Assembly (NCBI GenBank): GCA_963817515.1
Contig: CAWFPJ010000002.1
Span: forward strand, 39,454 to 103,453
Length of the DNA: 64,000 nt
DNA from: Bryobacterales bacterium
Lineage (GTDB): Bacteria; Acidobacteriota; Terriglobia; Bryobacterales; Bryobacteraceae
Reading direction: 5' to 3'
In this document: piece after piece, positions 21,153 through 31,518 of the stretch
Layout of the letters: every line of letters starts with the position of its first letter
How positions within the stretch are numbered: position 1 is the stretch's first letter
Translations under genes and position numbers: made by a program
Notes under the pieces: generated by a model
Databases searched by the model: none
Told to the model about the DNA's origin: nothing
Seen by the model: only the letters and a program-made list of their open reading frames with translations

Positions 21153-22691
21153 CTAGCGGATCACGTACAAATCCAGATCCGAAGCCAGGTCTCCGTGTTC
21201 CTGAATCCCTACCGTCTTCGCCGCGGCCGCATCCATGGCTGCGGCATCCGGCATCAGGTACTCAAAGGTGGCGAGGATTCGGTAACTTCCGGGCGCCAGG
21301 CCCTCGAAACGATACAGGCCGTGCGCATCGGTTCGCGTGACCCGCAGATCCGTGAGCCGCTTGCGCCCGTCCGGGTCGTATCCTTCCAGGTAGACCGGCG
21401 CGCCAAGCACCGGTTCCGCGGAATCTTTAACAGTCCCATGGACCGCCGCCGGGCCGGACGACAGCACGAACCTGACACGATCGAAGCCGCCCCGGATGAT
21501 GGTTTCGTTCCAGCCGTCCGCGCGCACATCCGGACGGCGGGCGTAGAACGGGCCGGAAAATCCGGCGACATAGTACCCTGGCGGCGGCGCTAACAGGAAC
21601 TGCCAGCGGCCTGGAGCCAGCGGGATTCGGTTGTTGACCAGCTTCAGACTGGCTGCGGGGCCTTCGCCTGCCAGATCTTTGCGGCGCGCCATCACCTGCA
21701 TGGACCCCGATGAGAGCGCTTGCGGCGGCGCGCCCTGGAAATCGAACTGCGTGTCGCGCAGGTTCTGCAGAGGCGTGACAAGCCTCTGGTCCCGTGCCAA
21801 CTCCACAGGTACGTAGGCTGCCTGCAGCAGAGCGCCTGAGGCCGGGTCGAAGCCCTGCCCGAACAATTCGTACCCGCCCGGCGTCAGGGAATTGAATTGA
21901 AAACCGCCGCCTTGCGTGGTGTCGCGGCCCATCTCCGAGATCAGAGTCGCGGTGATTCTGATGTTCGGTTCGAGGTCCGACGTGAACGCGCCCGAGAGAC
22001 TCAATAGCTTTCCCGGCAAGGGGCGGACATCGGCGTTCGCGACCTGCCGGTCCAGATCCACGTCCAAAATTCGCGCGTCCTCCACGCTCGCGGCGGCCGG
22101 AGAATAAGTCGGCAAATAGCCGCCCTCTTCGTAGAGCTTGGCCACGGTGCGGACCACATAGGCGCCGGGCTCAAGACCGTAGATACGGTACAAACCGCGC
22201 TCATCGGTGCGGGCGCGTTGGGTAGCCTGCGGCGGCCGGGTGTTACGGTACGCCACCACATCGTGGTCGGGGAGCCCCACCTCGTTATCGTCGAGCACTG
22301 CGCCGGTGATGGCTCCGTATCGCGGCAGGCGGACGTTGAGGAATGCGGATGCGGCCTCATCCAGAGTTACCGGAGTACCCGCGGAATTCCACCGCTTCTG
22401 CCCATACTCCACCGGCAGAAAATATGGCTTCGAAATCTTGACGACATATACGCCGCCGGGAAGCGAACCGAACTCAAAGATGCCGTAGCGATTGGTGAGC
22501 GCCCGCCGCGGAGATCCAGGGGTTCCGGCGACGGGCTGCACCACCACCAGCGCTCGCGAAAGCGCCTTGCTGGTCTGGTGCTCCACCACGTTGCCGCGAA
22601 TCACGGCGGCATCCAGCGTGGTTTGCAACGTACCCAAGGCCAAGGCGAGCATCAACATCAGCAGCAGCCATTTCGCCATAGCCGGCTTCAT
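21153..22691 (-). CDS. Secreted carboxypeptidase-regulatory-like domain protein (paralog 1)
   Basis: Signal peptide WLLLMLMLALALGTL. Repeated CarboxypepD_reg text (IRGNVVEHQTSKALSRALVVV..., VHGTVKDSAEPVLGAPVYLE...HGLYRFEGLAPGSYRI). Ends ...DLDLYVIR. Confidence 0.7.
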   Translation of the reverse strand: MKPAMAKWLLLMLMLALALGTLQTTLDAAVIRGNVVEHQTSKALSRALVVVQPVAGTPGSPRRALTNRYGIFEFGSLPGGVYVVKISKPYFLPVEYGQKRWNSAGTPVTLDEAASAFLNVRLPRYGAITGAVLDDNEVGLPDHDVVAYRNTRPPQATQRARTDERGLYRIYGLEPGAYVVRTVAKLYEEGGYLPTYSPAAASVEDARILDVDLDRQVANADVRPLPGKLLSLSGAFTSDLEPNIRITATLISEMGRDTTQGGGFQFNSLTPGGYELFGQGFDPASGALLQAAYVPVELARDQRLVTPLQNLRDTQFDFQGAPPQALSSGSMQVMARRKDLAGEGPAASLKLVNNRIPLAPGRWQFLLAPPPGYYVAGFSGPFYARRPDVRADGWNETIIRGGFDRVRFVLSSGPAAVHGTVKDSAEPVLGAPVYLEGYDPDGRKRLTDLRVTRTDAHGLYRFEGLAPGSYRILATFEYLMPDAAAMDAAAAKTVGIQEHGDLASDLDLYVIR

Positions 22692-24232
22692 CGGATAACG
22701 TACAGCTCCAGATCGAGGGGCGTGTCGTGGCTTTCTTCGATCTTCACCGTGCGGGGGCCGGCCGACTCCATAGTTGCCGAATCCGGCGCCTGAAATTCGA
22801 ACGTGCTGAGGATGCGGTAATTGCCGGGAGCCACGCCGTAGAACTGGTACTGGCCGTGAATGTCGGTGCGCGCTTCCCTGACGTCGATCAGGCGCTTGCG
22901 CGCGTCCACGTCGTACGCTTCCAGGTACACCGGCGCGCCCGGCACGGCGTCATGGCCGGCAATGGCTACCGTGCCGTGAAGCTGGCCGGGAGTGGACAAA
23001 CGGAAGGTCACCAGATTGGTGCCAACCTGCGTCGAGGGCAGCAGCACTTCGTTCCAGCCATCGGCACGGCTGCGGTCCACGCCGTCCGGCCTGCCGTCTA
23101 CTCCAGGGCCTCTGAACGTTTCGGCGTAATATTTCGGCGTGGGAGCCACCGCCATGTCCCATCGGCCGGGAGCGAGTTGCGTGGCGCCCTTCGAAAGCCG
23201 CAGGGTTTCGGTCTTGCCCTCACCCGAAAGATCCTTACGGCGCGCCAATACCTGCACCGTGCTGGGGTCGATCGGCTGGCCTTGGGTGTCCTGAAATGAG
23301 AACTGCAGCGGCGGATAGGTGCGCAGGCCGATCCGGATGTCGGTGCGGTCGCGCTCGAGTTCCAGCGGCATGTAAGCGCCTAGCGGTCCGCGGCGATCGC
23401 CCGGCGCGGTTGCGTATAACTCATAGCGGCCGGGGGCCGTGGGAGCGAATTTGAAGTTGCCGTCCTGGTCGCTCGAGAAAGTCTCCGACCCGGTATCGGA
23501 AATCAAGGTCAGAAGCGCCGGCTGCGGTGGCGACAAGGGAACCAGGGCCTGTCCGGCCACGATGAATAACTGGCCCGGGTGCGGGCGAACATTCACGTTG
23601 CTGGTCTCACGGTCGATCTCCACTTCCACCTGATACGCCTGGTCCACGGCGGCCACCTCCTTATAAAACGTAGGGAGATAACCGCCCTCTTCATATTCCT
23701 TGCCCACGGTGCGGACCAGATAGCGGCCGGGCTCCAGACCGGCAATGCGATACATGCCGCGATCGTCGGTCTTCACGCGTGTGACCAGTTGCGGCGGACG
23801 GGTGTTGCGATAGATCACGACGTCGTGCTCCGGCAGGCCCACGTCATTTTCATCCAGGATGACGCCGGTAACGGAGCCGAACCGCGGCATGCGGATGTTG
23901 AGAGACGTGGATTGCGCCTCTTCGAGTACTACGGGAATACCCGGAGCTTTCCAACGCTTTTGTCCATAGAGGGCCGGCGCGAAGCTGCGCCTTGACACGC
24001 TGACCAGATAGGCGCCCGCGGGGATTGTGGGCGTCTCAAAAGCGCCGTAGGAATTGGTACGGACGGAAATTGTCGGGCCGGGCGTGCCTTGCACCGGCGT
24101 TACCACCACAAGGGCGCGCGCCAGCACTTTTCCGCTCTGATGCTCCACCACGGTTCCGCGGATGTTGGCGGCCTGGAGAATACCGGCTGTAAGAGCCAAC
24201 AGCAGACATTCCGGCATTAGATATGGGCGCAT
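22688..24232 (-). CDS. Secreted carboxypeptidase-regulatory-like domain protein (paralog 2)
   Basis: Collinear with paralog 1 (IRGTVVEHQSGKVLARALVVV..., LHGTVAIAGHDAVPGAPVYLE...HGQYQFYGVAPGNYRI, ends DLELYVIR). I place the start at ATG 24232 (MRPYLMPECLLLALTAG), not at ORF-track 24541. Its stop overlaps the paralog 1 start (ATGA). Confidence 0.7.
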   Translation of the reverse strand: MRPYLMPECLLLALTAGILQAANIRGTVVEHQSGKVLARALVVVTPVQGTPGPTISVRTNSYGAFETPTIPAGAYLVSVSRRSFAPALYGQKRWKAPGIPVVLEEAQSTSLNIRMPRFGSVTGVILDENDVGLPEHDVVIYRNTRPPQLVTRVKTDDRGMYRIAGLEPGRYLVRTVGKEYEEGGYLPTFYKEVAAVDQAYQVEVEIDRETSNVNVRPHPGQLFIVAGQALVPLSPPQPALLTLISDTGSETFSSDQDGNFKFAPTAPGRYELYATAPGDRRGPLGAYMPLELERDRTDIRIGLRTYPPLQFSFQDTQGQPIDPSTVQVLARRKDLSGEGKTETLRLSKGATQLAPGRWDMAVAPTPKYYAETFRGPGVDGRPDGVDRSRADGWNEVLLPSTQVGTNLVTFRLSTPGQLHGTVAIAGHDAVPGAPVYLEAYDVDARKRLIDVREARTDIHGQYQFYGVAPGNYRILSTFEFQAPDSATMESAGPRTVKIEESHDTPLDLELYVIR

Positions 24233-24350
24233 AAGTTCTGACCGTATGACGGCTTGGGAGGCTGGAGAGTGCAGGGAAATGTTAGACCGTACGTGACCGA
24301 AAGATGTAGCATTGAATCCGTGGTGTTCGGTATATACTAACCAAAATCGA

Positions 24351-26303
24351 ATGATCAAGCCGGTGGCTCTCATCAGTATGCCGACTCTTTCGGCGCGCTT
24401 TCCTTCGTTCCAACTGGCACTGCTGAAACCAACTCTGGAGAAGGCCGGCATCCCCGCCCAGACGTTCTCTATGTTTATGTATTTTGGGCAACAGATCGGT
24501 TGGAGAATCAACGAAGCCATTGCCGACGTCTGGCCCAGCATGGTGGGTGAATGGATCTGGACAAAGGCCGCTTTCGGAGACCAGATACGGCAGGATGACG
24601 ACGCCTATTTCGGGGCTTACGACTATATTTTCAAAGCGATTTGCCGCGCCGCCGGCTGTAGCACCAAACGCTTTCAAAAGATCCGCGACCAGGAAGCTCA
24701 GAAGTTTATAGACTTCTGCCTGGAGGCCATAGACTGGCGGCGCTTCGGAGTAATTGGCTTTTCCGTGGTCTTCCAGCAAACGCTGGCCAGCCTGGCGCTG
24801 GCTAAAGCTCTGAAGAAGCGATACCCGGAGATTCCCATCATTTTCGGAGGAGCGAGTCTGGAAGACGATATCGCCGACGAGATCATGCGGGAGTGTCCTC
24901 AGGTGGATTACCTGCACTGCGGCGACGCCGAAATCTCATTTCCCGAAATGGTGCAGCGGCTGTATCGCGGCCAATCCATGGAGGGCTTGCGCGGCCTGAT
25001 GTGGCGCAACGGGGACAAAGTGGAGTATGCCGGCCGGGCGCCCAATTTCATGGCCATGGATGAGACTCCGCTGCCGGATTTCGACGAGTACTTCTACGCC
25101 CGCAAGGAAGGCGGCTACGAGGATTACGACGAGGCCTGCGAACCGCTGCTTCCGATCGAGACGGCGCGGGGCTGCTGGTGGGGCGAAAAACACCACTGCA
25201 CCTTTTGTGGTTTGAACCGCTCAGGCATGGAGTTTCGCGCCAAGGAGCCGGAGCGCGTCCTCGAGCAACTGGAAGATCTGGCGCGAAAATACGGGGTTCT
25301 GCACTTCAATGCCATCGACAATATTATGGCGCCGGAATACACGGAGAAGCTCTTCCGCCGCCTGGCTGAGGCCAATAGCGACCTGCAGCTCCATTATGAG
25401 ATCCGGCCCAATTTTTCGCGAACCCAACTCGGCCGGATGCGGAAGGGGGGCCTGTATTCGGTTCAACCGGGCGTGGAGAGCCTCTCTACCAACATTCTGA
25501 AAAGCATGCGCAAGAATACCACCGGCATGCGCAATGTCGAGTTGATCAAGTGGTGCACGTACTACGGGATCAATAATATGTACAACATCCTGATGCGCTT
25601 TCCGGGCGAGACCGAGGAAGACTACAGGGTACAGGCAGCGCTGGTCCCCAAGCTGCTCCATTTGCAGCCGCCCTACGGAATCGTCAAGGCGCGGGCTGAC
25701 CGTGGCTCCCCCATGTTTACCGAACCGGAAACGCAATCCATCACGCGCCTCAAACCGGCCGCCTGTTACGACCACATTTTTCCCAAGGGCTTCAATCTGG
25801 AGCGGGTGTCTTACTATTTCGACCACGAGATGGACAACATTGTGGACGAAGAATGCTACGGAGATCTGCTGGACCATGTGGCCCGGTGGCAGGCTAGTTG
25901 GACCGACGCCGGCCACCCGACGCTGCGCTACCGGAAGGCGCTCAAGAGCATCGTCATCGAAGATAGACGGCGCCGGAAACCTAAGACATATTCGTACGTG
26001 GACGGCCCGGCCGCTCTTTATGAATACTGCGCCGATGCGCGAACGCCGCGCGATATATCCGCCAACATAGGATCCGGGCCGGGTTCCGAAACCTGGATAC
26101 AGGAGGCGCTGGATGAATTCGTAAGCAGAGATCTGATGCTCTTTCTGGATGGCCGATATCTCAGCCTGGCGCTGCCCGAGAATCCGGATTTCGAACTGGT
26201 GACGCCGCCGCGTGCGCTCTCTGAAAGCGGCGCCGGCGCGCAAAGCAACTCGGCTGCGGGTTTGGTTTCACTGGCCGGATTGACAGGAGGACATTCCCAT
26301 TAA
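24351..26303 (+). CDS. B12-binding-domain-type radical SAM enzyme, RiPP-maturase-like (candidate TIGR03975-type C-methyltransferase family)
   Basis: ATG 24351 (MIKPVALISMPTLSARFPSFQLALLKP) is preferred over TTG 24312. Cluster motif ETARGCWWGEKHHCTFCGLN with Cys codons at 25173, 25197 and 25206. The N-terminal region is flavodoxin/B12-like, and there is a C-terminal extension of about 250 aa. The family assignment is from memory of the GCWWG..HC.FCGLN signature and needs an HMM search. Confidence 0.75.
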   Translation: MIKPVALISMPTLSARFPSFQLALLKPTLEKAGIPAQTFSMFMYFGQQIGWRINEAIADVWPSMVGEWIWTKAAFGDQIRQDDDAYFGAYDYIFKAICRAAGCSTKRFQKIRDQEAQKFIDFCLEAIDWRRFGVIGFSVVFQQTLASLALAKALKKRYPEIPIIFGGASLEDDIADEIMRECPQVDYLHCGDAEISFPEMVQRLYRGQSMEGLRGLMWRNGDKVEYAGRAPNFMAMDETPLPDFDEYFYARKEGGYEDYDEACEPLLPIETARGCWWGEKHHCTFCGLNRSGMEFRAKEPERVLEQLEDLARKYGVLHFNAIDNIMAPEYTEKLFRRLAEANSDLQLHYEIRPNFSRTQLGRMRKGGLYSVQPGVESLSTNILKSMRKNTTGMRNVELIKWCTYYGINNMYNILMRFPGETEEDYRVQAALVPKLLHLQPPYGIVKARADRGSPMFTEPETQSITRLKPAACYDHIFPKGFNLERVSYYFDHEMDNIVDEECYGDLLDHVARWQASWTDAGHPTLRYRKALKSIVIEDRRRRKPKTYSYVDGPAALYEYCADARTPRDISANIGSGPGSETWIQEALDEFVSRDLMLFLDGRYLSLALPENPDFELVTPPRALSESGAGAQSNSAAGLVSLAGLTGGHSH

Positions 26304-26352
26304 CCACCTGGCATCTCCCCGCATTGCAACCCCGCGCGAGGAGTTGCTGGAC

Positions 26353-29262
26353 ATGCTGCTGCAGCGTGGAATTTTGCGCCGCAACGAAGCTCAGCCGGTG
26401 CTTTCACGCGATGGCAAACCGGCCCGCTGGATGCTGGATTCGCTGGCCGTCACGATGACCAGCAGGGGAGCGGAACTGGCCGGACAGCTTGTGCTGGAGC
26501 GTCTGCGGAATTTCGATGGCCGGCAAATCGCGACCTACGGGCTGACCGCGGTTCCCATCCTGCAATCGGCAATCGTGCAATCGGCAGTTCTGCAGCCGGA
26601 ACGCCCGTATCACGGTCTGCTGGTGCGCAAAGAGCGCAAAGCGTACGGTTCGCAGAAACTGATTGAAGGCTGCATCGATCCGGACGAGCCCACTATACTG
26701 ATCGACGATTCCGTCGCCTCCGGCGTGAGCATGAGTGAGGGCATCGAGAAACTGGAGGCGGCCGGTATTCGCGTTGAGGGATGCGTGGCTCTGGTGCGGT
26801 TCGGTTGGGAAGGCGGATTTTCGATGCTTGCCCAGCGCGGCCTTCACGTGGAGGCGGTCTACGACATCTTTGAAGACTTCATGGCGCGAATGGAGGGCGA
26901 GCCTGGGCCAGACTATAACCCGACAAAGTGCTTTCCGGAATTTCGCTGGAGCACGCGGCGCGCGCCCGAGGGGCTGCATCCGGCACGTCTTGCCAGAGAG
27001 GTGATGCAGGAGTATTTCGCCAGCGGCGAGTTGCTGAGGCCACCGGACCGCCTGGATCGCGATGACTACGATTCCAGGGGAGGGGCCTGGGTGAGCCTGC
27101 GGTCACGGGACGATATGTTCGAGCGTTACGCGCGCGACGGCTTCTGGCATTTTCCCCAGGAGGGATCCTGGGGAGCGGCCGAGGATATCGTCCGCGCGGC
27201 GTTCCGCACTGCCCTCGAAATGTCCGCGGGCGGCAAGGGCATCAGTCTGCTGGGAGACAGCCATGCCGCTGTGACGTTGTTTTCGAGGCTCGAACGCGCG
27301 GCCATCGGGGAACTGGACAACCAACGCTACGGCATAATCGTAGCCAGTGCGGAGCGGCCGGAAATCATGGGCGGCGCTCTGCCCGGTATGCCGGGAATCC
27401 GTGACGAATGGCAACAGTTCCGCCACGCCCGGTATAACAATGCCGCGCTGTACCCTCACGAACCTTACACGGTCTACCGCCATGAAGTTCGAAAGTTCAT
27501 CGAACCGGGAGCGCCGTGGCCGCCGGGAGGAGTGGGGGACTCGAAGACGCCGGGCGATTTCGGCGCCTGGGCCGTGCGCGCCCGTGAAGTCGTCACCCGT
27601 GAAATAAGCCGGGGCTGCGAACCCTTCACACCGCTGGCGGCGGTCCACCTTCCGGAGAACGCCAGACTCATGTTCGTGACGCTCTATATCGACGGGCGGG
27701 TGCGCGGCTGCATGGGCTCGGAAATCGGCGATGCCGAAGAGGATCTCCGTGAACTGGCGCAGTCGGCCCTTACCGACGAGCGGTTCGAAGCCGCGCCGAT
27801 CGAGGAAGATTCTACCGTGGCGGTGAGCGTCTCGGTGCTCTACAACGAATTGGTTATGGGAGATTTCTCGCGTGAGGAGGTCCGCTTCCGCTATCGGCAT
27901 GGACAGCAGGCGTTGATGCTCGACCAGAAGGGCCGCGAGGGACTGCTGCTGCCATGCGTGGCAACGTGGCTCAGCCTTGACGCCGAGGATTTCGTCGATG
28001 AAGTGATTGACAAGGCGGGCGTCACGCGTCCGCCGTATAACTGGCGGCGCTTTGATTGCGATACCTGGCTGGCGGACGAAGACGGGGTTGCGCGGCTCGA
28101 TGGCGCTTTCAAGGTTGCTGCTTATCATCACACGGCCGATCTTTATAGGGCCGATCTTTCCCTCGCCAAAATCGCTCGCCTGCACGCGGACTATTTGCTG
28201 CGCAACCAGCGCCCGGATGGATCGCTCTACTTCGGCCACTACGCATTTGAGAACACACTCTACCAGGGCATTGACGCGGCTCACCTGGCGCACGCAGGCT
28301 GGATTCTGGCGCGGGCAGGTTTGGCCGACGCCTCAAACGCGGCTCTGGAACGAGCGGCAAATCTATCCGGGGACGAGCCGCTCAGGCTTTCGCGCGACGC
28401 GTTTTTCCTGCTCGCGAAGTGCGAACCGGCCCTGGCCGAGGGTGACCTGCCGGCGGCTGCGGAAATCGCGGCCAGACTGTGGACGTCAATAGACCGTCAT
28501 GGTCGCGTGACCACCTGGAGTCCGCCTGCGGCCGTGGAATCTGATGATGAGGATTCCGCCGATGCCCCCGAGGCTGACACCGGCGTGAGCGAGACCATTG
28601 ACGCTGAGGACCTTCAGAACTATGCTCCTGGCCATGTCCTGCTGGCCCTTGCCGCGGCCGCACGCGCAGGCAATTTTCCCTGCGACGAGCGGAAACTCAA
28701 CCGCGCGTTTCTGTATTACCGGCATCGTTTCCGCTACAAACGGGATTTCGGACAGGTTTCCTGGATGGCGCTGGCCTGGAGCGCCTGGTGGCGGCTGCGG
28801 AATGAACCGGAGTTTGCAGATTTCGTTTTCGAGATCGCCGACTGGATTCTGCAATTTCAGCACACCGGCACCGGAGCTTTTCTTACCGATCACCAACCGG
28901 ATACTCCCGGGTACACTACCGCGGTTTATCTGGAAGGCATCGCTGCCGCGGCGGTGACGGCACTCGCGCGCGGCGACACCACGCGGTACCAGCGATATTC
29001 GGACGCACATCGCCGCGGCTTCGCATTTCTTGACCGGTTGATCATTCAGGATCGCGATAGCTCTGTGCTTCCCAATCCCGGATACGCTCTAGGCGGTCTT
29101 CGCGAAAACCTATACAGCAGTCACATCCGAATCGATTTCGTGGCCCACTCGCTGGCCGCGATTCTCGAACTTTATCCCCAAGCTCTAATTCCAGTAGCAA
29201 ATACAAGAGGAGAATCAGAATGGCAGGCAAGAAGAAACCAAAGAAGCCAGGACCAATTATAG
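26353..29262 (+). CDS. Multidomain fusion protein: type I phosphoribosyltransferase domain + AMMECR1 domain + C-terminal helical-repeat (alpha/alpha-toroid-like) domain
   Basis: GAGGAG (26338-26343) lies 9 nt before ATG 26353; the ORF track starts at TTG 26344. OPRT-like N-terminus with the PRPP loop TILIDDSVASGVSM (about 26692-26735). AMMECR1 signature MFVTLYIDGRVRGCMGS ... GQQALMLDQKGREGLLLPCVA (about 27670-27960). The C-terminal 350 aa or so carry W/Y-rich helical repeats (LLRNQRPDGSLYFGHY, VSWMALAWSAWWRL, AVYLEGIAAAAV). Confidence 0.7.
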   Translation: MLLQRGILRRNEAQPVLSRDGKPARWMLDSLAVTMTSRGAELAGQLVLERLRNFDGRQIATYGLTAVPILQSAIVQSAVLQPERPYHGLLVRKERKAYGSQKLIEGCIDPDEPTILIDDSVASGVSMSEGIEKLEAAGIRVEGCVALVRFGWEGGFSMLAQRGLHVEAVYDIFEDFMARMEGEPGPDYNPTKCFPEFRWSTRRAPEGLHPARLAREVMQEYFASGELLRPPDRLDRDDYDSRGGAWVSLRSRDDMFERYARDGFWHFPQEGSWGAAEDIVRAAFRTALEMSAGGKGISLLGDSHAAVTLFSRLERAAIGELDNQRYGIIVASAERPEIMGGALPGMPGIRDEWQQFRHARYNNAALYPHEPYTVYRHEVRKFIEPGAPWPPGGVGDSKTPGDFGAWAVRAREVVTREISRGCEPFTPLAAVHLPENARLMFVTLYIDGRVRGCMGSEIGDAEEDLRELAQSALTDERFEAAPIEEDSTVAVSVSVLYNELVMGDFSREEVRFRYRHGQQALMLDQKGREGLLLPCVATWLSLDAEDFVDEVIDKAGVTRPPYNWRRFDCDTWLADEDGVARLDGAFKVAAYHHTADLYRADLSLAKIARLHADYLLRNQRPDGSLYFGHYAFENTLYQGIDAAHLAHAGWILARAGLADASNAALERAANLSGDEPLRLSRDAFFLLAKCEPALAEGDLPAAAEIAARLWTSIDRHGRVTTWSPPAAVESDDEDSADAPEADTGVSETIDAEDLQNYAPGHVLLALAAAARAGNFPCDERKLNRAFLYYRHRFRYKRDFGQVSWMALAWSAWWRLRNEPEFADFVFEIADWILQFQHTGTGAFLTDHQPDTPGYTTAVYLEGIAAAAVTALARGDTTRYQRYSDAHRRGFAFLDRLIIQDRDSSVLPNPGYALGGLRENLYSSHIRIDFVAHSLAAILELYPQALIPVANTRGESEWQARRNQRSQDQL

Positions 29263-29664
29263 AAGTGGCCCCGCCCGTGAAGAAGGGCTATGGAGGAATC
29301 ATCGAAGTGGCTCCGCCAACCGGCAAGCGTCGGGTCACCAAGCCGGTGATCGAAATAGCGCCGCCGGTCAAAGGCAAACGGCCCGGTGACGTGATTGTCG
29401 AAGTGGCTCCGGACATCAAGAAAAAGGCCGGTGGTGTGATGGAAATAGCGCCCGCCGTTCAACGGAAGAGCAAACCCCCCGGGGGGCCCATAAAGGAGAT
29501 AGCACCGGCGGTGAAGCCAAAGCCTTCCAAGCCCTGTGGGGCCGATTAAGGAAGTGGCCCCACCTACCAAGCCAAAGCCGAAGCCCATAGTGGAAATCGC
29601 GCCCCCTAAGAAGAAGTACAAGGGGCCGATTGTCGAAGTGGCTCCTCCGACTAAGAAGAAGTAG
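29220..29664 (+). CDS. Lys/Pro-rich repeat peptide (nine IEVAPP-type repeats). The reading frame is interrupted once, at the G4 run 29538-29541.
   Basis: GAGGAG (29207-29212) lies 7 nt before ATG 29220, and the start is 43 nt inside the end of the upstream gene. ORF 29220-29549 encodes six repeats and stops at TAA 29547. The +1 frame continues with three more repeats (GPIKEVAPPTKPKPKPIVEIAPPKKKYKGPIVEVAPPTKKK) to TAG 29662-29664. Removing one G joins them into a 147-aa product. Differences between repeats are mostly synonymous in this strand and frame. Confidence 0.65.
29256..29649 (+). repeat. Nine degenerate in-frame coding repeats (period 39-51 nt) encoding [IVMP][IVMK]E[VI]AP[PAD]
   Basis: Cores: IIEVAPP, IIEVAPP, VIEIAPP, IVEVAPD, VMEIAPA, IKEIAPA, IKEVAPP, IVEIAPP, IVEVAPP. 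They are separated by K/R/G/P-rich linkers. Confidence 0.85.
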
Positions 29665-29696
29665 CAGATAGCGCCGGCGGCTTAGAAAACCGGCGG

Positions 29697-29729
29697 CAAA
29701 AAACACCGGCGGCGGAGACCGCCGGCGCT
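29697..29729 (-). terminator. Rho-independent terminator for the minus-strand respiratory operon, shared with the convergent peptide gene
   Basis: On the minus strand: CCGGCGG-tctccg-CCGCCGG hairpin (plus-strand coordinates 29706-29725) followed by TGTTTTTTG (plus-strand A-run 29698-29703). It lies 55 nt downstream of the DUF420 stop. Confidence 0.65.
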
Positions 29730-29783: not shown

Positions 29784-30194
29784 TCAGAAGTGGTAGAGCA
29801 TCACGTACACCACCACGCCGGTCACGCTCACGTAAAGCCAGATGGGCAGCGTCCAGCGCGCAATTTTCCGGTGTTTGTCGTAACGGGCAGCCAGGCCGCG
29901 GCGCAGCGTGATAGTCGCCAGCACCGGAACCGTCGCGGCCAGCACTGTGTGGGTGAACAGGATGGTGAAATAGACAGTGCGGATGGCGCCGGTATGCTGA
30001 AACTTCACCGAGCCCACCTGCAGGTGATATATCACGTAGCAGACCAGAAATAAACACGAAGTCGCGAACGCGGTTTTCATGACCCGGCGGTGCTGGTCGA
30101 TGCGTTTGCGGCGAATCAGGATGAAGCCCCACACCAGCAGCACGGCGGCCGTGGCGTTGAGCGTGGCATTTACGGTGGGCAGTATTGCGATCAT
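29784..30194 (-). CDS. DUF420 domain-containing membrane protein (CtaM-like oxidase-associated factor)
   Basis: Four predicted TM helices. The NATLNATAAVLLVWGFILIRRKRIDQHRRVM and HTVLAATVPVLATITLRRG pattern is typical of DUF420. Confidence 0.7.
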   Translation of the reverse strand: MIAILPTVNATLNATAAVLLVWGFILIRRKRIDQHRRVMKTAFATSCLFLVCYVIYHLQVGSVKFQHTGAIRTVYFTILFTHTVLAATVPVLATITLRRGLAARYDKHRKIARWTLPIWLYVSVTGVVVYVMLYHF

Positions 30195-30790
30195 GATCGC
30201 TCGCGCTGTAACTGGTGGAGGTCGTGGAGCAGGCGCGCCTTGAAGTCGTCGTCGGAGGTCAGATAGAAGCCGCGAATGCGCCGCCGGCCATCCACCAAGG
30301 CGAACCGCGTGCTGTGACTCAGGCTGCCGTCTACGCCGGTGAGCTTGAAACCCTTGAGCCCGAGTTCGTTGAGGCGCGCCATATCGCCGGTCAGGAAATA
30401 CCAGCGCGCCAGGTCGGCTTTGAAGAATTGCGCGTACTTGGCGAGCACCGGCGGGGTGTCGTGCGCCGGGTCCACCGTGAAGGAAACCAGCTTGACGTCA
30501 GGCGTCGATTCGGTGGAACTTTGCAGTCCGCGCATCTGGTGGCTCATCATGGGGCAGGGGCCGTCGCAAGTTGTGTAAATGAAATCGGCGATCCAGATGT
30601 GGCCATCGAGAGTCTTGCTGTCGAAGGGCTGGCCGGTCTGGAGGATGAGGTCGAACTGTGGAACCTCGCCCAGCACCGGCAGCGGCTTGGTGGTGACGCA
30701 TGAGGCTAGAAGGGATAACAGGAGGCATGCCGTGCCGGTTTGAAAGCCGGCGTGGCACGCACGAGTGCCTGCTCCACGGCGGGTGCTCAT
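30191..30790 (-). CDS. SCO1/SenC family copper chaperone (thioredoxin fold)
   Basis: I place the start at ATG 30790 (MSTRRGAG...LLLSLLASC); ORF-track 31486 is a spurious extension. CDGPC copper motif in IADFIYTTCDGPCPMM and the downstream SHSTRF histidine. Its stop overlaps the DUF420 start. Confidence 0.85.
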   Translation of the reverse strand: MSTRRGAGTRACHAGFQTGTACLLLSLLASCVTTKPLPVLGEVPQFDLILQTGQPFDSKTLDGHIWIADFIYTTCDGPCPMMSHQMRGLQSSTESTPDVKLVSFTVDPAHDTPPVLAKYAQFFKADLARWYFLTGDMARLNELGLKGFKLTGVDGSLSHSTRFALVDGRRRIRGFYLTSDDDFKARLLHDLHQLQRERS

Positions 30791-31518
30791 GTGGTTGACT
30801 TCTGCGCCGCCAACATGCCGGAGGCCAGTAGAAGCGCCAGTCCGAAGGCCGCGGTGATGGCGAGGCTTTCGGCCGGCCCGGGGACGGCGTTGGGCAACCC
30901 GAGCATATAGTTCAGCAGGGAGATTGAATAGGTGAGCGGGTTGATCCACATGAGGGCCCTTACCCATCCGTGCGCCGTGGCCATGGGGAAGAGGGCGCCT
31001 GACACCATCCACATGGGCACCAGCAGCAACATCATGATGCCGTGAAATGCCGCGGTGGAATCCATTTTCCATGCGATCGCAAACCCGAGACCGGTGAGCG
31101 TGAACGAAATTAGAAACATCGCGGCCACAACCCACAACACATCTATCAGCCCGATGCTCACCCCGGCCAGCGGGGCGAAGACCAGCAGCATCAGGCCCTG
31201 GATCCAGCCCAACGTGGCGGCGCCCAGAATCTTGCCCAGCACCAGGCTGGTGCGCGGCGCGGGCGAAACCAGCATGGAAAGCAGAAAACCCTCCCTGCGG
31301 TCTTCGATGATCGAAATGGTGGAAAAGATGGCGGAAAACATCACCGTCAGCACCAGAGTTCCCGAATAGTATCGCGCCAGGTCGCCCGAACCGTAACCGA
31401 TCAGCAGCCAGAAAACCAGCGGCGAAGCCACCACGCTCATCACGCGGCTTTTCTGGCGCCAGAAGCGCAGCATTTCGCGCTGCCACAAGGTTGCTGCGGG
31501 CAAGAAGAAGCTACTCAA
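30787..31518 (-). CDS. ABC-2 type transporter permease
   Basis: Six hydrophobic segments. TLWQREMLRFWRQKSRV is the typical ABC-2 N-terminus. The start is uncertain: TTG 31518 overlapping the ATPase stop, or ATG 31473. ATGA overlap with the SCO gene. Confidence 0.7.
   Translation of the reverse strand: MSSFFLPAATLWQREMLRFWRQKSRVMSVVASPLVFWLLIGYGSGDLARYYSGTLVLTVMFSAIFSTISIIEDRREGFLLSMLVSPAPRTSLVLGKILGAATLGWIQGLMLLVFAPLAGVSIGLIDVLWVVAAMFLISFTLTGLGFAIAWKMDSTAAFHGIMMLLLVPMWMVSGALFPMATAHGWVRALMWINPLTYSISLLNYMLGLPNAVPGPAESLAITAAFGLALLLASGMLAAQKSTT

Follow-up and report, generated by a model that had tools for sequence, protein, structure and literature searches.

The 64,000-nucleotide stretch analysed here (the window; contig CAWFPJ010000002.1 of a soil bacterium of the Bryobacterales) harbors a cassette of three genes, which are packed closely together and located co-directionally on the plus strand, as the original prediction had it and as is borne out by the open reading frames (ORFs) of the window. 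Gene i (24351 to 26303) encodes a B12-binding radical S-adenosylmethionine (SAM) enzyme of 650 amino acids (P0001; assigned by TIGR03975, Pfam and orthologs). Gene ii (26353 to 29262) encodes a 969-amino-acid fusion protein (P0002), in which a phosphoribosyltransferase (PRTase), a middle region, an AMMECR1 domain and an α/α6 toroid follow one another according to profiles, structure models and homologs. The product of gene iii (29220 to 29549) is a Lys/Pro-rich repeat peptide of 109 amino acids (P0003) with six cores of the G-P-I-V-E-V-A-P type. Co-localisation of the trio across phyla and conservation of the peptide cores support the proposal that these genes form a conserved, undescribed peptide-modification system, for which no counterpart was found in the literature. 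The cassette is best classed as a cluster resembling those for ribosomally synthesized and post-translationally modified peptides (RiPPs), with a methyltransferase of a known family and an unprecedented second enzyme. It is read here, with slightly better than even confidence, as a RiPP-like biosynthetic cassette, with the repetitive peptide as the multi-core substrate of both enzymes.

Homologs of the fusion protein are widespread yet uncommon: at least 719 matches were obtained, and the fusion is present in 6 of 301 sampled Acidobacteriota genomes. A radical SAM gene adjoins the fusion gene in all 18 loci of GTDB genomes with enough flanking sequence (16 loci and two more genomes), and the orthologs encoded in Acidobacteriota and Rokubacteria loci are 67–84% identical to P0001. 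The repeat peptide is encoded next to the fusion or the radical SAM enzyme in 15 loci (14 of the first 16 and one further genome), so that the co-localisation that had been proposed as a check is found in relatives for both partners. The peptide-bearing loci belong to Acidobacteriota (Bryobacteraceae, Terriglobia), Methylomirabilota, Verrucomicrobiota (Angelobacter), Omnitrophota and one Clostridia metagenome-assembled genome (MAG). The trio is the sole gene neighbourhood conserved across related loci. Its order is radical SAM–fusion–peptide in most Acidobacteria, while the peptide is located upstream of radical SAM–fusion in the Clostridia MAG; the order peptide (with a leader of about 50 amino acids)–fusion–radical SAM is found in genome G216, and fusion–radical SAM in genome G075 and the Omnitrophota locus L014. 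That the trio is kept together despite this reshuffling points to a functional linkage and is a stronger sign of it than a single inherited operon would be. The locus of the Clostridia-labelled MAG (L011, CAZTUB010000007) comprises the full cassette, with an upstream peptide of 250 amino acids and 10 cores; the cassette was either acquired horizontally or placed in this MAG by faulty binning.

The homologous peptides share the core G-P-I-V-E-V-A-P, of which 5–10 copies are found in each, separated by variable Lys/Arg/Pro/Gly linkers. Conservation of the peptide, on which the original prediction could be judged as well, is seen at the level of the core. In the Angelobacter loci, P-I-[VA]-E-[VI] is retained and the repeats are otherwise different; a second radical SAM enzyme (31% identical) is encoded there. 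Six or more repeat motifs occurred in none of 20000 composition-preserving shuffles of the window peptide. Between each other, its cores are 69% identical in DNA sequence, and the repeats were not detected at the DNA level by Tandem Repeats Finder. The low DNA identity indicates that the repeats are conserved as protein, with selection acting on the encoded peptide, and are not recent DNA duplications. P0003 is very basic and Pro-rich, has no clear leader and gave no family match in Pfam or NCBIfam. In a related soil strain, the peptide region is spanned by a single metatranscriptome contig, a weak hint of expression.

The start of gene iii was predicted correctly: its ATG at 29220 lies 43 nucleotides within the 3' end of gene ii and is preceded by a ribosome-binding site of its own (GAGGAG, 29211 to 29216, plus strand). 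The predicted end at 29664 and the nine in-frame repeats, on the other hand, did not hold. The ORF stops at 29549, with six [VI]xE[VI]AP repeats in frame, and is ended by a +1 frameshift at a GGGG run (29538 to 29541, plus strand; contig C2, approx 68991–68994). Three further cores (GPIKEVAP, KPIVEIAP and GPIVEVAP) are encoded by an ORF in the +1 frame (29536 to 29664, plus strand), and nine repeats are thus obtained only if the frameshift at GGGG is read through. The peptide ORF is uninterrupted in the homologs, and the extra G is either a real mutation or a sequencing or assembly error. A search of sequencing runs at this site retrieved only related soil strains (at most 0.39 of words), in which the allele differs (substitutions and an inserted GT in one soil run), and for this reason they cannot decide whether the extra G of this genome is real.

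P0001 matches TIGR03975 (RiPP maturation radical SAM C-methyltransferase) over its full length (NCBIfam; 563.1 bits, residues 5–608, curated cutoff 281.85 bits), as was predicted, while the second-best NCBIfam family reaches only 67 bits. These profile scores place the enzyme well within the RiPP C-methyltransferases and outside the lipid or tetrapyrrole families, against which the assignment was to be checked. Its remaining NCBIfam matches of note are other B12 radical SAM families. PF04055 (Radical_SAM) is also matched in the Pfam search; the match to PF02310 (B12-binding; 29.6 bits, residues 95–199) is just below the cutoff of 32.1, and this domain is annotated (precomputed) in many close homologs. 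The [4Fe-4S] motif Cx7Cx2C (GCWWGEKHHCTFCG, residues 275–286; 25173 to 25208, plus strand) has the same spacing as that of PoyC, which was called unusual in a 2024 review of RiPP methyltransferases (PMC11285071), the likeness being one of motif spacing. PoyC is a B12-dependent radical SAM enzyme that methylates the Cβ of Ile and Val in polytheonamide (PMC11285071). TokK is the sole relative of P0001 with a solved structure and is too distant for the target residue to be named from it. With respect to the gene start, translation might alternatively begin at a TTG further upstream (24312); the homologs begin at the ATG at 24351.

B12-binding radical SAM paralogs with 30–35% identity adjoin unrelated repeat peptides in other Acidobacteria, without AMMECR1, which suggests a wider family of such enzymes modifying repeat peptides. 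Repetitive precursors thus seem to go generally with this radical SAM lineage, whereas the partnership with PRTase–AMMECR1, missing beside the distant paralogs, is specific to this cassette. Paralogs next to ORFs for repetitive, peptide-like products (with repeats of GPYVRELASEKAG or of ATRWAGG) are found in L032 (G142:C61) and L033 (G075:C20). The window genome itself encodes a second TIGR03975 radical SAM enzyme (C32:21579-23375, minus strand; 670 bits, 35% identical to P0001), adjoined by a SPASM-type radical SAM enzyme (C32, approx 23384-24406) and a 1036-amino-acid protein. No AMMECR1 is found there, and this is probably a separate RiPP locus.

For gene ii, AlphaFold models of the two halves of the protein were searched with VIA and Foldseek, and four parts were distinguished. 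The PRTase and AMMECR1 domains of the original prediction were recovered; what it had described as a generic helical repeat turned out to be an α/α6 toroid, and a middle region of approximately 220 amino acids has to be added. All features of the fusion given here are on the plus strand. The type I PRTase core (residues approx 23–175; 26419 to 26877) resembles orotate phosphoribosyltransferases (OPRTases), with VIA Z values of 15–17 against 2WNS, 5HKI and 2P1Z and 59 bits against TIGR00336. Its flexible-loop motif VRKERKAYG (26623 to 26649; R92 and K96 invariant) aligns in HMMER with RRKETKDYG of human OPRTase, and the loop ILIDDSVASG (26695 to 26724; D118-D119, S123 and G124 invariant), which binds phosphoribosyl pyrophosphate (PRPP), aligns with IIEDVVTSG of the same enzyme. 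The Asp pair of the PRPP loop (codons at 26704-26709) and the Arg/Lys of the flexible loop are invariant across approximately 120 homologs, so that the gene ii protein has the fold, the PRPP loop and the flexible-loop Lys/Arg by which a type I PRTase is recognized. The middle region (residues approx 176–395; 26880 to 27540) has a mixed α/β composition, lies outside the structure matches of PRTase and AMMECR1 and is conserved across the fusion homologs; neither a VIA match nor a known fold was found for its residues approx 180–395.

The AMMECR1 domain, a RAGNYA duplication (residues approx 399–585; 27547 to 28107), was assigned by PF01871 (69.8 bits) and by a VIA Z of 17.4 against 1VAJ (PH0010); against TIGR04335 it reaches 76.1 bits, below the cutoff of 99. 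The predicted active-site motif RGChG (here RVRGCMG, 27697 to 27717) contains Cys453 (codon at 27709-27711), which is invariant in 121 homologs, and the DxRa motif (DERF, 27775 to 27786) is invariant in the homolog alignment as well. RGChG with an exposed Cys and DxRa are the active-site signatures of AMMECR1 set out by Aravind and colleagues, by whom a role in a nucleotide or RNA modification pathway was predicted (PMC2034487). The C-terminal α/α6 (six-hairpin) toroid (residues approx 600–969; 28150 to 29262) was modelled with an AlphaFold pLDDT of 86.5. Its best Foldseek matches are squalene-hopene cyclase, AprG and GH76 (TM approx 0.5), its Atlas neighbours are six-hairpin proteins of the GH127/C5-epimerase type, and LanC is absent from the top 50 Foldseek matches. 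With matches that are merely those of a generic α/α6 toroid and do not include LanC, a specific function cannot be assigned to this domain. In L017, G216 (L037) and G166, the fusion gene is interrupted near residue 480 or 656 by a frameshift or a stop, so that two ORFs result; these cases may be further frameshifts, mistakes in assembling GC-rich sequence, or genuine pseudogenes.

While the genes, their domains and conserved catalytic motifs, the co-localisation and the conservation of the peptide cores are observed directly, we infer as follows that the peptide is the substrate, which of its residues are methylated and how PRPP is used. The precursor would consist of a variable number of G-P-I-V-E-V-A-P cores, which are kept apart by Lys/Arg-rich linkers and are in some cases preceded by a short leader. 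The radical SAM enzyme would move methyl groups from methylcobalamin to unactivated carbons. If it behaves like PoyC and the methyltransferases of bottromycin, it would probably act on Cβ of the Ile/Val (perhaps Pro) conserved in each core. At its intact type I PRTase site, the fusion protein would use PRPP for a second modification of the peptide. The likeliest form of this step would be the transfer of ribose-5-phosphate onto a peptide nucleophile (the carboxylate of the invariant Glu, the N-terminus or a Lys amine); alternatively, a PRPP-derived group might be built first and then installed. A further step would be carried out by the AMMECR1 domain via its conserved Cys, and the toroid probably binds the peptide, as motifs and cassette context suggest. 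The +14 Da and +212 Da chemistry put forward in the original prediction is a plausible proposal. The leader of about 50 amino acids in G216, as possessed by RiPP precursors, was counted in favour of a RiPP. A tentative extension, unlikely in its complete form, is that of a new RiPP class of multi-core, Val/Ile-rich peptides, which would be C-methylated and would in addition receive PRPP-derived ribose-5-phosphate or ribosyl groups on the invariant Glu or on amines by the action of PRTase–AMMECR1; AMMECR1 would thereby receive its first biochemical function.

Several observations weigh against a RiPP-like pathway. The peptide of the window has no leader and its ORF is broken by the frameshift, and no peptide was found beside fusion and radical SAM gene in L014 and G075, where the contigs may end too early or the sequence may have diverged. 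Neither a protease nor a transporter is conserved in the cassette neighbourhood, which leaves release and export of a product unexplained; processing and export, if any, would fall to host functions. To our knowledge, no RiPP uses a PRTase, for which reason the second modification step is read from domain identity alone, and the acceptor of the PRTase could be something other than a peptide.

It is conceivable, though not likely, that the peptide serves as a scaffold for a cofactor or another small molecule, like PqqA for pyrroloquinoline quinone (PQQ) and MftA for mycofactocin, with the metabolite being built from a conserved residue (e.g. the invariant Glu or Val/Ile) and released afterwards, and PRPP giving a ribose-phosphate. 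A PRTase of the nucleotide/cofactor type and a radical SAM enzyme next to a short peptide in which a Glu is invariant are consistent with such a role, as are the predicted participation of AMMECR1 in nucleotide or RNA modification (PMC2034487) and the ribose-phosphate moiety that occurs in many cofactors. However, the precursors of such cofactors are usually single-core, and the 5–10 cores found here, which vary among strains, fit better to a multi-core natural product; the rarity of the cassette in Acidobacteriota (6/301 genomes) is not what would be expected of a housekeeping cofactor. That a Lys-rich disordered protein (e.g. one that binds to the envelope or to nucleic acids) is modified to serve a function in the cell itself, without a secreted product, appears quite improbable. 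The basic, Pro-rich character of P0003, its lack of a clear leader in the window genome and the location of the cassette among ordinary cell-envelope and respiration genes would be in line with it, but the peptide of one relative has a leader and the modifying enzymes fall in RiPP-maturation families. Very unlikely is a fusion protein with catalytically dead PRTase and AMMECR1 domains, acting as scaffold or chaperone for radical SAM enzyme and peptide (like a RiPP recognition element or MftB): its activity is only predicted and the toroid could simply bind the peptide, but the Asp pair of the PRPP loop, the flexible-loop Arg/Lys, the AMMECR1 Cys and DxRF are invariant in approximately 120 homologs, whereas motif decay would be expected in a non-catalytic scaffold. 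A function as defence system was considered and is unsupported, PADLOC giving no match for any of P0001 to P0003.

Among described systems, PoyB/PoyC and BotRMT1-3 are cobalamin-dependent radical SAM C-methyltransferases acting on Val/Ile-rich ribosomal peptides, as P0001 is predicted to be. On sequence grounds, membership of the cassette in the proteusins nevertheless fails. Proteusins possess a nitrile-hydratase-like (NHLP) leader, whereas P0003 is leaderless and the leader of about 50 amino acids in G216 is unrelated by eye; the epimerase, N-methyltransferase and dehydratase of the polytheonamide cluster have no counterpart in this cassette. With AmmeMemoRadiSam (AMMECR1, Memo and AmrS; TIGR04335 to TIGR04337) the cassette shares an AMMECR1 next to a radical SAM enzyme and is only loosely related otherwise. 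The radical SAM enzyme of that system is AmrS (TIGR04337), in contrast to the B12-binding RiPP methyltransferase found here, and the AmmeMemoSam radical SAM model is not among the 17 NCBIfam hits. In the cassette, AMMECR1 is part of a protein that also comprises a PRTase and a toroid, its TIGR04335 score stays under the cutoff, and a peptide gene accompanies it. Memo (PF01875) was found neither in the cassette, from which it had already been reported absent, nor in its conserved neighbourhood. The fused AMMECR1 of the cassette is the only one of the genome. The only Memo of the genome is a standalone gene on another contig (C10:313037-313921, plus strand; PF01875, 105.6 bits) without a detectable AMMECR1 nearby; a canonical AmmeMemoRadiSam trio was looked for elsewhere in the genome, and only this Memo, with no adjoining AMMECR1, was encountered.

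The PRTase part of gene ii has the same fold and PRPP motifs as OPRTase (PyrE) (Z 15–17; RKExK and DD..SG loops), but is embedded in a 969-amino-acid multidomain protein in a peptide cluster. Orotate is probably not its acceptor; a separate PyrE is presumably encoded elsewhere in the genome. Toroid domains serve peptide binding in RiPP enzymes such as LanC. The toroid of gene ii, for which binding is proposed by inference only, is instead nearest to terpene cyclases, AprG and glycosidases. In the literature, neither a description of a PRTase–AMMECR1 fusion nor one of this cassette was found, the relevant publications being limited to the methyltransferase review and to the RAGNYA analysis by Aravind and colleagues. 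A coupling of a PRPP-dependent PRTase with AMMECR1 is not part of any described pathway for RiPPs or protein modification.

AMMECR1 is conserved in archaea, in eukaryotes up to humans and in many bacteria, and we know of no explanation of its reaction, even within AmmeMemoRadiSam. Its occurrence in a defined cassette, together with an intact PRTase, a B12 methyltransferase of RiPP class and a candidate peptide, makes a direct co-expression test possible. The main value of the cassette is that the function of AMMECR1 becomes testable. If the reading is true, natural-product chemistry would gain a new route in the PRPP-derived modification of a RiPP; many methylated peptide units might also be produced from one gene by way of the repetitive precursor.

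Upstream of gene i, a divergent promoter region had been proposed at 24233-24350. A promoter scan found no σ70 consensus in this interval, which does not show that a promoter is absent. The convergent terminator of the original prediction was located in a sequence scan as G+C-rich terminator-like hairpins (29694 to 29724, minus strand), which separate the cassette from the DUF420 gene converging on it. The genes on either side are ordinary ones. Divergent to the cassette, two CarboxypepD_reg/SdrD-like proteins of the outer-membrane type are encoded on the minus strand (22688-24541 and 21153-22691). The called N-terminus of the former overlaps the start of the radical SAM gene on the opposite strand, and its real start is therefore probably located further downstream. 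Convergent to the cassette, genes for a DUF420 membrane protein (29784-30194, minus strand) and SCO1/SenC (30191-31486, minus strand) form a cytochrome-oxidase assembly region.

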